A model generated the notes under the pieces. That model was given only the letters and a program-made list of their open reading frames with translations, ran no database searches and was not told the origin of the DNA. Below, in pieces: positions 17,557 through 21,298 of a DNA stretch of 64,000 nucleotides (position 1 is the first letter of the stretch; each line of letters starts with the position of its first letter). The position numbers were made by a program, and so were the translations under genes. The DNA is from Promethearchaeia archaeon (lineage in GTDB: Archaea; Asgardarchaeota; Lokiarchaeia; Sigyniarchaeales; SOKP01), in assembly GCA_029856125.1 (NCBI GenBank), contig JAHQWJ010000147.1, positions 1 through 64,000 of the forward strand, in the 5' to 3' direction.

Positions 17557-18267
17557 ATGGTTCAAGAATACATAATCATTTTTATGCCAGCTTTTTTATT
17601 AGGAATCTTACATACTGCTATTCCGTGCGAAGATAAAGCTATCTTCTTTTTTTGGTCTTTTGGAATAGCGAAAACCCCTGGTAAAAGCATTTTTATCTTA
17701 GCACTTTATGGATTGGGTTTAATCTGTGCAAATATGATCATTGCATCGGTAACAGTTTTAATTCCCCAAGTCCCAAGATTTGTCTTTCCGGGTTTTACCC
17801 CAGATCCTCATATTATCAACTTTTTTGGTGCTTTTACTTCTATGCTCGCTGGAATCGTTCTCTTATTCTTTTTGACAAGGCGAGACTACACGCCACACTC
17901 GAGATATTCGAAGGAAATTTCAACTTTAGATTGGGAATTAAAGAAGACTCCATTTTTCTTTGGTATTCTAGCGGGGTTTGCTCCTTGCATATTTGAGTTA
18001 ATTATATATTCTCAATCATTTCAGTTCGCATTAGGATATGGGTTTATCGAGGGTTTATTAGTTGTTTTTTACTTTTCGCTTGGGACTTTCGTGGGGCTTT
18101 TTCCGCTTGCGTTAGCGAAATATGGAACCTCGCAGATGGTCAAGCCAAATATTAAAAGGAGGAAAGTCATTTTCTATTTAATGATTTTAATCATCATTAT
18201 TTTCAATAGTGTGGTAATGATTTTATCGTTTTTACGAATATCTGTATTTCCTATAGAAAGTTTATAG
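17557..18267 (+). CDS. Membrane protein of the DsbD-TM / UreH / NicO-like superfamily
   Basis: LLGILH..IPC and FFGILAGFAPC motifs, FSLGT, 6 TM segments. Confidence 0.6.
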   Translation: MVQEYIIIFMPAFLLGILHTAIPCEDKAIFFFWSFGIAKTPGKSIFILALYGLGLICANMIIASVTVLIPQVPRFVFPGFTPDPHIINFFGAFTSMLAGIVLLFFLTRRDYTPHSRYSKEISTLDWELKKTPFFFGILAGFAPCIFELIIYSQSFQFALGYGFIEGLLVVFYFSLGTFVGLFPLALAKYGTSQMVKPNIKRRKVIFYLMILIIIIFNSVVMILSFLRISVFPIESL

Positions 18268-18436: not shown

Positions 18437-20809
18437 ATGGTTGACTGCAAATTTTGTGAATCCCAAAACATTTCTTTTACTTGTGAGAAATGCAAGTCAA
18501 GTTTTTGCATTAACCATATGGCTACAACAGAGAGCTGGCTTTGTAGAAAGCATGAGTTACATTATTCTAAGGCGAGTGCTACTGAGAAATTTTATAAATG
18601 TACTGTTATTGAAAATAGTAAATGTCCGGAGTGCGATTCTCTCTTAAGATTAGAAAGATTATCATCGGGTCATTATTATTTAGAGTGCATTGACGATACA
18701 TGCAGTTGGAACTCCTACTTAAAATCTCCCGGCTTATTTTTTCCTACTAAAGAACAGTTAGCTAGGGAAGCTACGAAATATAATTTAATTAAAGGATATA
18801 GGTTAAACTTATGTCGTCGATCTCTCAAAAAGATAGTTGGGAAAGATATTTGTCCAAATTGTTTCATAGAGTTTCTCAAGAGAGCCTCAATTACTAACTT
18901 CTCCACTATTATCGAATCATTCAATCTTACTGCTCAACAAATGGTTAAATTAATTAACCAATACATTGAAGAGGAACGAATTTATGGTATAATTGACCAG
19001 AAGAACCAGATTTTTTACTACATATCCTACGAAATCCGTGAGAAAATTTTATCGAAAATTCAAAACGAAGGTATATTGAAAGTAGCAGATCTGGGAGAAA
19101 TGCTCGATATGAGTTCAGAAGCGGCTATAAAAGTCATTTATAAGTTAATTAGCCAGTTTCAAATCAAAGGCTCGTTTTCTCAAACAAAACAATTCTATTA
19201 CTCCCAAAAATATATAATAGACCATTTAATAGAAGAGATTAATAAAAAGGGAAGGGTTTCGTTAGATAAACTTGCGAAAATATTTGATGTCCCAGGAGAA
19301 TTGACAAAATCTTTTTGCGTCAATCTAATGAGAACAAACGCAATTAATGGATTTTTTGCCGATCGTGGTAATGAAATTATTACTTCTGACCAAATTTATA
19401 AAGAAATTAAAGCTTTTTCAAAAGAAGTAGGTTTATTTGAGCTTTCTAAGCTTGCTACAAAATTAAAAATAGCTATAGAATTAGCAAGAAAAAGTCTTCA
19501 TGAACTCATTAAATCTGGCAAAATTAAAGGGCTTTTCACCCAACGCAGAGAATTCATGACACGTAAATACCTCGAGACGAAAATAAAAGAAATCGCTCGA
19601 GCCTACAGAACGATGCCATTAAGAGAACTTTCGAACAGATTGGGTGTAACTGAATCCAGCATAGAAGAGAATCTTGCTCAACTGATTGGAAGTGGAGATA
19701 TCGATGGTTTTATTGATTTAGGAAAGAGAATGTTTACAGCATACTCGGTACCGCGCACTTCATCAGGAACTTCGCGGCCAAAACAGAAAAAAGCAATTCC
19801 TGTTGACGAGGGAAACATTGAAGTTGTAAGGGATTATGATTTCGAGGGTGGACAAGTACACATGAAAATCGCTGTACGGAATAAAAGCGATATGGCTATC
19901 AATAATGTTAAAGTCCTATTAGATGCGCCAACTAACTTCAAAGTAAAACAACCTTTGATAAGTGTTCCCGTAATTGAAGCTAAGAGTAGTAGGGGAGTAG
20001 ATTTTTATCTTGAGCCCAAAAATTGCGGCACATCAAACATTGGCGGAACTGTTATCTTTAAAGATGCAACGGGTGAAAAACACACTAAACACATAAGAAA
20101 AAAAGAAGTTGCTATAAAATGTCCACTTGTTTGTACCTCAATGAGCACTATAGAGGATTGTCAAGTTGCAATACAAACCTTAGGAAACGATGCTCGGGCA
20201 TTTTTAATTGCTGACTTAGACCCTCGTTTAGCTTATAGGGCTGCGATAAGAACGCTAAAAAACTTTGATACTAGCGCTGTAACATCACACGAGGGTTCTG
20301 ATCCAAAGGGAAATTACGAAGCTGAAGCATGGTTCTGTTCTGAAGCAAAAGTTACTGGCGGGAGAATTATTACACGAATCTATGTATCTGAAACAAGTCA
20401 ATCATTGGAAGTAAGAGTATGGTGTGGAAATCCAGGACAATTAACTGGTTTCTTAGCTAAAATTATAGAAATATTGTTTGAGCAGATAAACATAATCAGA
20501 AAAATCAAATCAGAGGAAAGAGAGAAAACAATAGATGTCATGGCAATTACACAGAACTTAGCTGAAATCAGCGATTATTGTATGCTTAGATGGAAGGCAC
20601 AGAATATAAGAAACAAATTGCATGACACATTTGTACGTTTAAGGAAAATTTTAGGAGATAATGAGGCTATCTTAGGTAGAGTCGAATATTGGCTAACTCA
20701 ATTGAATAAATATGGCAAAGACGATAAAATCAGCGATGAGGATGCCGAAAAACTAGTGAATGATGTAGAAAAAATCAAAAGTGTCATTTCCCGAGCCATA
20801 AAAATGTGA
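18437..20809 (+). CDS. Multidomain protein: Zn fingers + tandem winged-helix/PCI-like repeats + GAE-platform appendage + helical tail
   Basis: CxxC..CxxC..C..H and CPEC..C....C at the N-terminus; about 5 repeats ending in G-x-[IF]-[DST] wings; C-terminal beta-sandwich and alpha/beta platform pattern. Confidence 0.75.
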   Translation: MVDCKFCESQNISFTCEKCKSSFCINHMATTESWLCRKHELHYSKASATEKFYKCTVIENSKCPECDSLLRLERLSSGHYYLECIDDTCSWNSYLKSPGLFFPTKEQLAREATKYNLIKGYRLNLCRRSLKKIVGKDICPNCFIEFLKRASITNFSTIIESFNLTAQQMVKLINQYIEEERIYGIIDQKNQIFYYISYEIREKILSKIQNEGILKVADLGEMLDMSSEAAIKVIYKLISQFQIKGSFSQTKQFYYSQKYIIDHLIEEINKKGRVSLDKLAKIFDVPGELTKSFCVNLMRTNAINGFFADRGNEIITSDQIYKEIKAFSKEVGLFELSKLATKLKIAIELARKSLHELIKSGKIKGLFTQRREFMTRKYLETKIKEIARAYRTMPLRELSNRLGVTESSIEENLAQLIGSGDIDGFIDLGKRMFTAYSVPRTSSGTSRPKQKKAIPVDEGNIEVVRDYDFEGGQVHMKIAVRNKSDMAINNVKVLLDAPTNFKVKQPLISVPVIEAKSSRGVDFYLEPKNCGTSNIGGTVIFKDATGEKHTKHIRKKEVAIKCPLVCTSMSTIEDCQVAIQTLGNDARAFLIADLDPRLAYRAAIRTLKNFDTSAVTSHEGSDPKGNYEAEAWFCSEAKVTGGRIITRIYVSETSQSLEVRVWCGNPGQLTGFLAKIIEILFEQINIIRKIKSEEREKTIDVMAITQNLAEISDYCMLRWKAQNIRNKLHDTFVRLRKILGDNEAILGRVEYWLTQLNKYGKDDKISDEDAEKLVNDVEKIKSVISRAIKM

Positions 20810-20884: not shown

Positions 20885-21298
20885 ATGCCCATAATTAGTA
20901 TATCTATCAATGAGAGCTTAAAACAATTTATCAATAAACTTGTTTCAAAAAACCAATATGACAACAAATCCAAGCTAATCCGAGATGCTTTATTAAGACT
21001 AATGTCTGATATTGAAGTATCAAGCGTCGAGTCTATTGGGGATGTGGCTTCGATTGAGAAAAGCATTATTGGAAATCTAATTATAATAATGCCCCATGAT
21101 CCGATTGTTCAGAGAAAATTGAACAAAATCGAAAATAAATATATGGAGCAAATTGTTAATAAAAATCAACACTTCCAAGGAGAAAATCTCATATTGTCAA
21201 TTATTTTCGATGGGAACGTCTCAGATTTTCAAAATATCGTAGTCGACATAAATGGGATTAAAGAAATTAAGAACTTCCGTTACTTAATAGTCAATTAA
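20885..21298 (+). CDS. CopG/NikR-like ribbon-helix-helix regulator with C-terminal ACT-like domain
   Basis: IISISINESLKQFINKLV...YDNKSKLIRDAL ribbon-helix-helix signature. Confidence 0.85.
   Translation: MPIISISINESLKQFINKLVSKNQYDNKSKLIRDALLRLMSDIEVSSVESIGDVASIEKSIIGNLIIIMPHDPIVQRKLNKIENKYMEQIVNKNQHFQGENLILSIIFDGNVSDFQNIVVDINGIKEIKNFRYLIVN

Follow-up and report, generated by a model that had tools for sequence, protein, structure and literature searches.

A predicted single-chain archaeal relative of the UFL1-DDRGK1 winged-helix scaffold, joined to an adaptin-type appendage and a Vps28 C-terminal-like bundle

The forward-strand ORF at 18437..20809 of the 64,000-nucleotide stretch of DNA that was analysed (the window) encodes 790 aa followed by a stop codon. 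The gene is single-copy, and no paralogue of any of its modules was found by tblastn and an orthologue HMM search of the genome. Its product is basic (pI 9.0 overall, 9.9 for WH4) and would be a cytosolic non-catalytic scaffold or adaptor of Loki-type Asgard archaea (Promethearchaeota). As predicted, its parts, all on the + strand, are in order a module with three zinc sites, five PCI-like winged-helix (WH) domains that form a rigid rod, a flexible basic linker, an appendage and a Vps28-C bundle. Orthologues 57-96% identical were present in about 80 Promethearchaeota genomes, and the neighbourhood GT87-hyp-GT87-DsbD-gene-NikR-(Fer4)-parvulin-HD was syntenic in about 80 Promethearchaeota loci. 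No ESCRT or ubiquitin gene was linked to it in this neighbourhood (GT87, DsbD-like, NikR-like, parvulin), and because the entire block is conserved, the neighbourhood gives no functional link. The NikR-like gene is inverted in G147/L014 and L095. In RNA libraries from two studies, short contigs 93-99% alike lay on the gene; such contigs can neither prove transcription nor rank genes.

The protein begins with a two-zinc cross-brace finger (residues 1-50; 18437..18586) with invariant ligand columns, in which C4, C7, C16, C19, C24, H27 and C36 are invariant across orthologues and H39 is nearly so. A zinc ribbon, a helix and a third Cys knuckle follow (residues 51-139; 18587..18853), with C63, C66, C84 and C89 as ligands of the ribbon and C126, C139 and C142, possibly together with C55, as those of the knuckle. 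The initial annotation had described AN1-like and Zn-ribbon fingers here, and the description held in part. The zinc ligands and the ribbon were borne out: residues 56-116 returned the Elf1 zinc ribbon in the fold search (Z 4.2), the best match for the N-terminal module folded alone, and dynactin p62 matched the ribbon/knuckle region (E 6.7e-4). The AN1 type was not recovered. The ligand spacing is AN1/HIT-like, and that of the first six ligands fits AN1; the final pair, however, reads C-x2-H where AN1 has H-x-C. Pfam zf-AN1 gave no match at E <= 10, the zf-AN1 structure 1wfe matched weakly when the orthologue profile was compared with the PDB (E 0.56), and the fold search with the finger gave generic cross-brace matches of the FYVE/RING/PHD type (Z about 3). 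Ligand pattern and fold model together predict three zinc sites at the N-terminus, with the AN1 type unconfirmed.

In the AlphaFold2 model, which was template-free (mean pLDDT 82; 81-91 across the WH array), five adjoining units of the form helix-strand-helix-helix-hairpin follow the zinc module: WH1 (residues 140-197; 18854..19027), WH2 (198-256; 19028..19204), and WH3 (257-316), WH4 (317-375) and WH5 (376-436), the last three spanning 19205..19744. About five repeats of ~60 aa had been proposed from the sequence at 18899-19740, which corresponds to residues 155-434, and the peptides quoted then lie at 162-219, 265-285 and 398-427. The five modelled units agree with that proposal, as does their comparison by HHalign, in which eight of the ten pairs reached a probability of 72-97% at 11-30% identity; the WH1-WH3 pair reached just 22%. 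No internal repeat was detected by BLASTP self-comparison of residues 131-460. The best of the five stretches matched by Pfam PCI (6e-24) is 372-434, so that the last unit, WH5, is the most PCI-like, as had been suggested.

Three Pfam families that the initial annotation had named for comparison all scored above their gathering cut-offs: PCI, E3_UFM1_ligase (2.1e-16 at 225-435) and DDRGK (3.9e-15 at 141-219); for the last two, PF09743 and PF09756, the scores were 60.8 bits (cut-off 23.2) and 56.4 bits (cut-off 27.8), respectively. When the orthologue profile was searched against the PDB, the best sequence match of the array was the DDRGK1-UFL1 chimera 8b9x (E 2.8e-14), and the human DDRGK1 sequence quoted in that annotation agreed with the HMMER alignment to 8b9x and 8c0d_B. 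The same structure was the top Foldseek match of the model (5.5e-11), followed by 60S-bound UFL1 (8qfc_B, 8ohd_A) and adaptin/COPI appendages, and in the VIA superposition the modelled array fitted the crystal structure of the human chimera (8b9x_B) over four domains with Z 16.2 and an rmsd of 3.3 A for 242/255 residues. Sequence, fold and packing all pointed to DDRGK1-UFL1. A better match to SelB, ESCRT-II or generic WH domains, without UFL1-like packing, had been named as grounds for rejecting this relationship; SelB and ESCRT-II scored far below DDRGK1-UFL1 for the WH array, with SelB 1lva at 1.5e-4 in Foldseek. In the ESM Atlas the closest named clusters were eukaryotic E3_UFM1_ligase fragments (0.79 and 0.76), which lie below the 0.9 level and serve as a lead only. 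As judged from profile comparison and the predicted model, these results support the proposed kinship between the archaeal WH array, which lies in a single chain, and the WH scaffold of UFL1-DDRGK1.

The likeness could also reflect a shared PCI-type WH fold only, if the protein imitates a PCI assembly (proteasome lid, CSN or eIF3-like) within one chain or is simply a tandem-WH protein of a generic kind. The highest-scoring Pfam family is PCI, the CSN chain 9efq_B superposed on WH4-WH5 with Z 13.2, the DDRGK model has matches in Methanosarcina, and such arrays occur in many archaeal proteins. What is specific, however, is the 210-residue colinear E3_UFM1_ligase match, a 204-residue stretch aligned to the chimera and the rigid-body fit of four domains, and the E3_UFM1_ligase model found nothing in the 14 control genomes (14/14 silent). 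PCI proteins of the lid, CSN and eIF3 consist of a helical-repeat part followed by a WH subdomain, whereas the archaeal protein, although it passed Pfam PCI, carries five tandem WH subdomains and lacks the helical-repeat half in the AF2 model. We therefore regard this explanation as decidedly unlikely. The JGI names of orthologues and weak matches to HTH families (HTH_DeoR, AsnC-type, MarR) would instead suggest a DNA-binding transcription regulator of the Lrp/ArsR family, as some automatic annotations have it, but every one of these matches is under its cut-off, and PCI-type units stacked into a rod and fused to trafficking-type domains make such a role highly improbable.

Residues 142-345 of the orthologue profile aligned to 8b9x 13-222 as a single colinear stretch of 204 residues over the chimera junction, and against the PDB native DDRGK1 aligned to residues 141-221 and native UFL1 to 224-346. 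Within WH2, H1-H2 align to the C-terminus of DDRGK1 and H3 with the wing to the N-terminus of UFL1. The place of the split falls in the turn between H2 and H3, at about residues 223-226 (nt 19103-19114). Because the alignment is colinear over this junction, the archaeal WH2 is the undivided form of what in eukaryotes is a composite WH; it is not assembled from two half-domains on two polypeptides, and residues 198-256 form it in one chain. On this alignment and the model, WH1-WH5 are homologous to DDRGK1 WH1', the composite WH and UFL1 WH1-WH3, respectively, and run in the same order; a shift of register among tandem repeats is possible in principle. The wing of WH1 carries the motif IIDQKNQ, whose human counterpart is IDDRGK; D187 is invariant, and the K at the position of the catalytically important Arg of DDRGK varies among orthologues of 41-45% identity. 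No counterpart was found for the UFC1-binding alpha1 helix and hinge of UFL1; where the UFL1 N-terminus would lie, the AF2 model has no additional helix, and a 3-residue turn joins H2 and H3 of WH2. Eukaryotic DDRGK1 and UFL1 would then have arisen by fission of such a chain within one WH domain, and the UFC1-binding helix would have been gained afterwards at the newly made N-terminus of UFL1. A gene split offers a simple explanation for the odd composite domain of eukaryotes.

A search of the genome for UFM1-pathway homologues, which the initial annotation had proposed, came back empty: at E <= 1 the Pfam models for UFM1, UFC1, UfSP (Peptidase_C78) and CDK5RAP3 matched nothing in this 99.1%-complete genome, and Pfam Ufm1 was found in 0/151 Asgard genomes. 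Structure-based Ufm1-like proteins have been reported from nine Asgard clades and could escape the Pfam model. The genome does have a Ubl-E1-E2-JAB operon, on C65, and four ubiquitin-like genes. The ...AG ends of three divergent Ubl paralogues resemble the UFM1 C-terminus; these paralogues were dropped as UFM1 candidates, with weak Pfam 'ubiquitin' matches only, no Ufm1 match and an ordinary Ubl-E1-E2-JAB operon. Of DDRGK1 the protein lacks the membrane anchor and the long helix, and of UFL1 it lacks WH4-5 and the C-terminal tRNA-site/PTC module; in place of these UREL ends it has the N-terminal Zn module and the C-terminal appendage and Vps28-C. It is very unlikely that the 790-aa protein is a UFM1 ligase, because it has no UFC1-binding helix, membrane anchor or ribosome-plugging C-terminus and the pathway genes were undetected by Pfam.

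A broader catalytic role, as a proto-UFM1 ligase, would make the protein a scaffold-type E3 for an archaeal Ubl, with WH1-WH3 binding the charged E2 and promoting transfer to a target held by the remainder. The minimal human UREL ligase is WH1'-composite-WH1 (Peter 2022), which is exactly where the archaeal array superposes, and the Ub operon, the four ubiquitin-like genes and the Ufm1-like folds reported in Asgard archaea also speak for this role. However, UFL1 alpha1, which is needed for UFC1 binding and aminolysis, has no counterpart, H2 and H3 of WH2 being joined by the 3-residue turn, UFC1 and UFM1 are not found by Pfam, the position of the DDRGK-motif arginine varies among orthologues, and the gene is unlinked to the Ub operon. 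Conservation against the 41-45% orthologues also runs the other way: WH2 (0.22) and WH3 (0.29), which match part of the eukaryotic catalytic core, are the lowest of the WH units, whereas the appendage (0.57), Vps28-C (0.48) and WH5 (0.46) are the highest, with WH4-WH5 the best-conserved part of the array and the appendage that of the whole protein. Such a ligase is in our judgement unlikely.

Zinc ribbons are common in ribosome-bound factors, and together with the basic character of the protein and of WH4 they would suit a ribosome-associated factor that, like UREL, places its WH rod along the large subunit and so connects ribosomes with membranes or with ESCRT, in the service of quality control or turnover. 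In the human complex every WH except WH1' contacts 60S (uL1, eL13 and others). UREL nevertheless owes its 60S specificity to elements that are all absent here (the UFL1 C-terminal domain with the PTC loop, CDK5RAP3 and the N-terminal helix of DDRGK1), and no ribosomal genes lie in the neighbourhood, so we consider such a role unlikely.

The C-terminal half lay outside the scope of the initial annotation, and it is the appendage and Vps28-C that dominate the functional reading. After a Ser/Thr/Lys-rich basic disordered linker (residues 437-460; 19745..19816; pLDDT <50 at 437-458), fold matches identified an adaptin/COPI-type appendage (residues 461-665; 19817..20431). It is a two-subdomain ear, with an IG-like beta-sandwich (461-562) followed by a platform (TBP-like) subdomain (563-665), matched in Foldseek by 1e42_A (2.4e-9) and 9qpq_H (6.3e-9) and also by 1pzd; in VIA the AP-4 beta appendage 2mj7 gave Z 13.7 at 562-690 and 9qpq_H Z 13.3. 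By sequence, the Pfam adaptin-appendage match is below its cut-off (E 0.087). The protein closes with a long helix and a four-helix bundle resembling the Vps28 C-terminal domain (residues 666-790; 20432..20806), detected both by Pfam VPS28 (3.7e-6, above the gathering cut-off; profile positions 87-180 of 188) and by fold, with Vps28 CTD 2j9w_A at Z 14.7 (rmsd 2.2 A, 98/101 residues) and 2g3k_A at Z 12.4. Genes for ESCRT-I Vps28 and for ESCRT-II EAP30 (Vps22-like) are present in the genome, the Vps22-like one at G000:C126:229935-230597.

Considering all the above results, we favour, with somewhat better than even confidence, a non-catalytic scaffold and cargo adaptor that docks on ESCRT-II and whose chain is of the UFL1-DDRGK1 type before fission. 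Such a protein would not conjugate UFM1 but would work as a cargo adaptor. By analogy, its Vps28-C bundle would dock on ESCRT-II, whose Vps22-like gene the genome carries; the precedents for this presumed docking are eukaryotic Vps28-C and Y2H results for the canonical Asgard Vps28, a different protein. The appendage would act as a hub for short-motif partners, and the Zn/WH half would select the cargo or target, with ubiquitin-like-modified proteins and the large ribosomal subunit as candidates. A stronger version, in which the protein preserves the unsplit UFL1+DDRGK1 ancestor and natively tethers large ribosomal subunits or other bulky cargo to ESCRT/coat-like machinery without UFM1, seems to us improbable. 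If it were true, the ribosome-embracing WH scaffold would predate UFM1 and would have begun as a trafficking adaptor, and the E2-binding helix would have evolved at an N-terminus made by gene fission inside a WH domain.

UFMylation, though essential to eukaryotes, is a pathway that is still poorly understood, and its E3 is odd because the WH repeats are divided over two proteins. The occurrence of these repeats in a single chain, in a genome where UFM1 is undetected, supports the published idea that the scaffold predates the modifier, and by its fused Vps28-C and adaptin ear the protein is tied to the early history of ESCRT/coat adaptors. High conservation and a single copy per genome within one lineage should make the family tractable for binding studies. 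The feature itself is a known one, which our analysis confirms: Liu et al. 2021 described its architecture, Picchianti 2023 the origin of UFL1/DDRGK1 in Asgard archaea, and Makarova et al. 2024 put forward the ESCRT-0-analogue idea, and the unsplit WH2 is our sole small addition to that picture.

Compared with known systems, the protein shares with human UFL1-DDRGK1 (UFBP1; 8b9x, 8c0d, 8ohd, 8qfc) a rod of stacked tandem PCI-like WH domains, but the human rod is made of two chains with half-domains and the archaeal one of a single chain with an intact WH. The human complex also has the alpha1 helix, UFIM, anchor, UFL1 WH4-5 and C-terminal domain, none of which the archaeal protein has, carrying instead Zn fingers, the adaptin appendage and Vps28-C. 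With canonical ESCRT-I Vps28 (2j9w, 2g3k) it shares the C-terminal four-helix bundle and not the N-terminal core that joins the Vps23/Vps37 headpiece; the canonical Vps28 of the same genome is a separate gene (G000:C33:6535-6963). Makarova et al. (2024; PMC10936438) suggested that Asgard Vps28-C/adaptin-appendage proteins are analogues of ESCRT-0, and these proteins resemble the present one in Vps28-C and the adaptin appendage (IG-like and TBP-like), the HTH/PCI domains being presumed to bind the cargo; that work does not discuss the UFL1/DDRGK1 correspondence, and the longin domain is absent from the present protein. The closest description is the Asgard multidomain ESP family with an E3 UFM1 ligase 1 domain, an adaptin/COPI C-terminal domain and Vps28 (Liu et al. 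2021; bioRxiv 10.1101/2020.10.19.343400, Fig. 5a), which unites an E3_UFM1_ligase WH array, the appendage and Vps28-C in one protein and of which the present gene is a member with no essential difference.

The scaffold-protein gene is a single open reading frame on the forward strand (18437-20809, +; 790 aa; G+C of the window about 31%), and it contains the whole stretch in which the initial annotation had claimed tandem winged-helix (WH) repeats ending in a PCI-like one, a description that was borne out. The array peptides it had named were located at residues 162-219, 265-285 and 398-427, and a template-free AlphaFold2 model from 34 homologues (mean pLDDT 82; 81-91 over the array) showed five back-to-back units, WH1 to WH5 (residues 140-197, 198-256, 257-316, 317-375 and 376-436), all in the order helix-strand-helix-helix-hairpin. 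BLASTP found no likeness among these units, since they are too diverged for it to see the repeat, and profile-profile comparison gave an HHalign probability of 72-97% for eight of the ten pairs, WH1-WH3 being weak (22%). In Pfam, the protein scored well above the curated cut-offs of three models: PCI at 6e-24 in five stretches, the best of them 372-434; E3_UFM1_ligase at 2.1e-16, with residues 225-435 on profile positions 21-234; and DDRGK at 3.9e-15 over residues 141-219. A generic PCI-like assembly, to which the first of these matches could point, was judged distinctly unlikely beside the following comparisons with DDRGK1 and UFL1.

In PDB searches, the human DDRGK1-UFL1 chimera 8b9x was matched at 4e-7 with the single sequence and at 2.8e-14 with an 18-orthologue profile, which aligned residues 142-345 to chain positions 13-222 in one unbroken stretch. 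Against the orthologue profile, native DDRGK1 covered residues 141-221 only, the match stopping about 18 residues short of its C-terminus, and native UFL1 residues 224-346 only. The top Foldseek match of the model was again 8b9x (5.5e-11, target TM 0.68), followed by UFL1 on 60S (8qfc_B, 8ohd_A); SelB (1lva) reached only 1.5e-4, and Pfam EAP30 stayed below significance in the 790-aa protein. A second structural alignment (VIA) to 8b9x_B gave Z 16.2 and rmsd 3.3 A over 242 of 255 residues, so that four WH domains superpose as one rigid body on 8b9x, a crystal structure released in 2023 with which a model built without templates was compared. SelB, ESCRT-II and generic WH domains were thus not the better matches, the packing was UFL1-like, and the proposed single-chain archaeal relative of the UFL1-DDRGK1 array was upheld by sequence and fold; that the array instead marks a DNA-binding regulator seems very improbable. 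Pfam DDRGK also passed its cut-off in the Methanosarcina acetivorans control, so this model alone is not specific and is no evidence for a UFM1-pathway relative; E3_UFM1_ligase matched in none of the 14 control genomes. With the latter, 20 of 25 genomes from the organism's own family each gave a single strong match, and other parts of the phylum only sporadic weak ones; DDRGK matches lay just upstream in the same ORFs.

In eukaryotes, the DDRGK1 C-terminus and the UFL1 N-terminus each supply half of a composite WH domain that holds the ligase together (Peter et al., 2022; Makhlouf et al., 2024). In archaeal WH2, the DDRGK1|UFL1 junction aligned to the turn between H2 and H3 (residues ~223-226), with H1-H2 (198-223) aligning to DDRGK1 and H3 plus wing (227-256) to UFL1; the domain that eukaryotes assemble from two halves is therefore intact in the archaeal protein. 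As a half-domain cannot originate alone, the simplest inference from these alignments is that DDRGK1 and UFL1 derive from fission of one such chain. The UFC1-binding helix alpha1 of UFL1 is located exactly at the N-terminus that this fission would have created.

Residues 1-139 carry invariant Cys/His ligands in the orthologue alignment for three predicted zinc sites, namely a cross-brace pair (C4, C7, C16, C19, C24, H27 and C36, with H39 almost invariant), a zinc ribbon (C63, C66, C84, C89) and a third knuckle (C126, C139, C142). When this module was folded by itself (pLDDT 83), its matches were all weak: dynactin p62 at E 6.7e-4, the Elf1 ribbon at Z 4.2 and FYVE/RING/PHD-type fingers at Z ~3. 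Of the fingers described initially, the Zn ribbon has invariant ligands; the AN1 label is tentative, as the first six ligands are spaced in an AN1-like way but the searches did not recover AN1.

After a disordered, basic linker (residues 437-458) follow a two-part adaptin/COPI appendage (461-665), whose fold matches include the beta2-adaptin ear 1e42, COPI 9qpq_H and the AP-4 beta platform 2mj7 (Z 13.7), and a Vps28 C-terminal four-helix bundle (Vps28-C; 666-790), matched by Pfam VPS28 above cut-off and by 2j9w_A (98 of 101 residues aligned at rmsd 2.2 A, Z 14.7). The earlier interpretation, which was given without this rest of the protein, is therefore supported but incomplete. At 25-35% identity, the appendage (residues ~450-690) turns up again after a wide variety of N-terminal regions (proteins P0131-P0271; Helarchaeota P0140/P0134); these proteins reach 2311 aa, and some have Vps28-C and some double zinc ribbons, DUF4350 or ABC_transp_aux. 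Such extensive shuffling is in line with Liu et al. and Makarova et al. The NCBIfam model NF045535 ('Sel_Asgard, putative selenocysteine system protein', 195 aa) aligned end-to-end to residues 594-788 (window 20216-20800), the platform plus Vps28-C, at 3e-9, a match that falls far short of the model's cut-off and points to this family as a free-standing relative of that module; no true member was found in the own genome.

Against three orthologues at 41-45% identity, conservation was highest in the appendage (0.57), Vps28-C (0.48) and WH5 (0.46), and lowest in WH2 (0.22) and WH3 (0.29). The eukaryotic catalytic core has three domains, and WH2 and WH3, the least constrained WH units, correspond to two of them, which speaks against conservation of an E2-activating role. 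We lean slightly towards a non-catalytic adaptor, in which Vps28-C would dock on ESCRT-II, the appendage would collect short-motif partners and the Zn/WH half would pick cargo. Makarova et al. (2024; PMC10936438) proposed that Vps28-C/appendage proteins bind ESCRT-II directly as ESCRT-0 analogues, with cargo bound by HTH/PCI domains. A ribosome-bound factor, recalling the 60S-bound UFL1 structures, is rather unlikely, and would be compatible with the adaptor if the cargo were the ribosome.

ESCRT is represented in the genome (3.69 Mb, 153 contigs, completeness 99.1%) by a Vps28 gene of ESCRT-I and an EAP30 gene of ESCRT-II, and the ubiquitin system by four ubiquitin-like genes and an ordinary Ubl-E1-E2-JAB operon. 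The search for UFM1 and UFC1 homologues that the initial annotation had proposed gave no match at E <= 1 in this genome with the Pfam models of Ufm1, UFC1, UfSP peptidase or CDK5RAP3, and Pfam Ufm1 had no match in 151 sampled Asgard genomes. In nine Asgard clades, however, Koestlbacher et al. (2026) reported Ufm1 homologues recognised by structure, which could escape the Pfam model. A proto-E3 for an archaeal Ubl, for which E1 and E2 partners are encoded, is unlikely beside the weak constraint on WH2 and WH3. The canonical operon lies outside the window on contig C65 (locus L103, 10281-14494), in the order Ubl (109 aa), ThiF-type E1, UQ_con E2, JAB/MPN protease and a 374-aa protein with no Pfam match. 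Of the divergent Ubl paralogues, three (two encoded on C65 and one on C145) start with acidic, disordered extensions and have ...IPAS[TI]AG(+K/IL) in place of GG at the C-terminus; a fourth, on C56, ends in QAGG.

Close orthologues (57-96% identity, ~790 aa) occur in about 80 genomes, which with few exceptions carry the label Promethearchaeota or Promethearchaeia, i.e., Loki-type Asgard archaea; source annotations read 'PCI domain-containing protein' or 'DUF2042 domain-containing protein', and no second copy was found in the own genome, where the gene is unique. The co-directional flanking genes, a DsbD/CcdA-like membrane protein upstream (17557-18267, gap 169 bp) and a NikR-like regulator downstream (20885-21298, gap 75 bp), are kept in nearly all of these genomes, the latter inverted in the most distant relatives (L014, L095); since the whole block is syntenic, the neighbourhood gives no functional clue. 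Short RNA-library contigs from two studies map onto the gene, a weak hint of transcription. At L086 (6001-8205; CP070831.1, a complete-chromosome MAG), the orthologue aligns to residues 56-790 only, lacking the cross-brace finger, and upstream DsbD/GT87 synteny stops where the alignment begins, reflecting either natural N-terminal truncation or rearrangement. At L091 (6001-8282), the frame is interrupted near residues 730-742, within the Vps28-C bundle, perhaps by a frameshift or through a fault in the assembly.

Compared with known systems, the 790-aa protein differs from UFL1 in lacking the alpha1 helix, WH4-5 and the C-terminal module plugging the tRNA sites, and from DDRGK1 in lacking the membrane anchor and long helix. 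Among the papers in the library searched, a single one, Picchianti et al. (2023), treated DDRGK1, UFL1 and Asgard archaea jointly; its main text makes no claim that both proteins are covered by one archaeal chain. The unsplit composite WH is a small new point and the only, modest, addition of the present analysis. The feature itself is already known from the literature, as Liu et al. (2021; bioRxiv 10.1101/2020.10.19.343400) described an Asgard fusion of Vps28/Vps23 with adaptin and COPI C-terminal domains and E3 UFM1-protein ligase 1, which has exactly the same architecture as the 790-aa protein.
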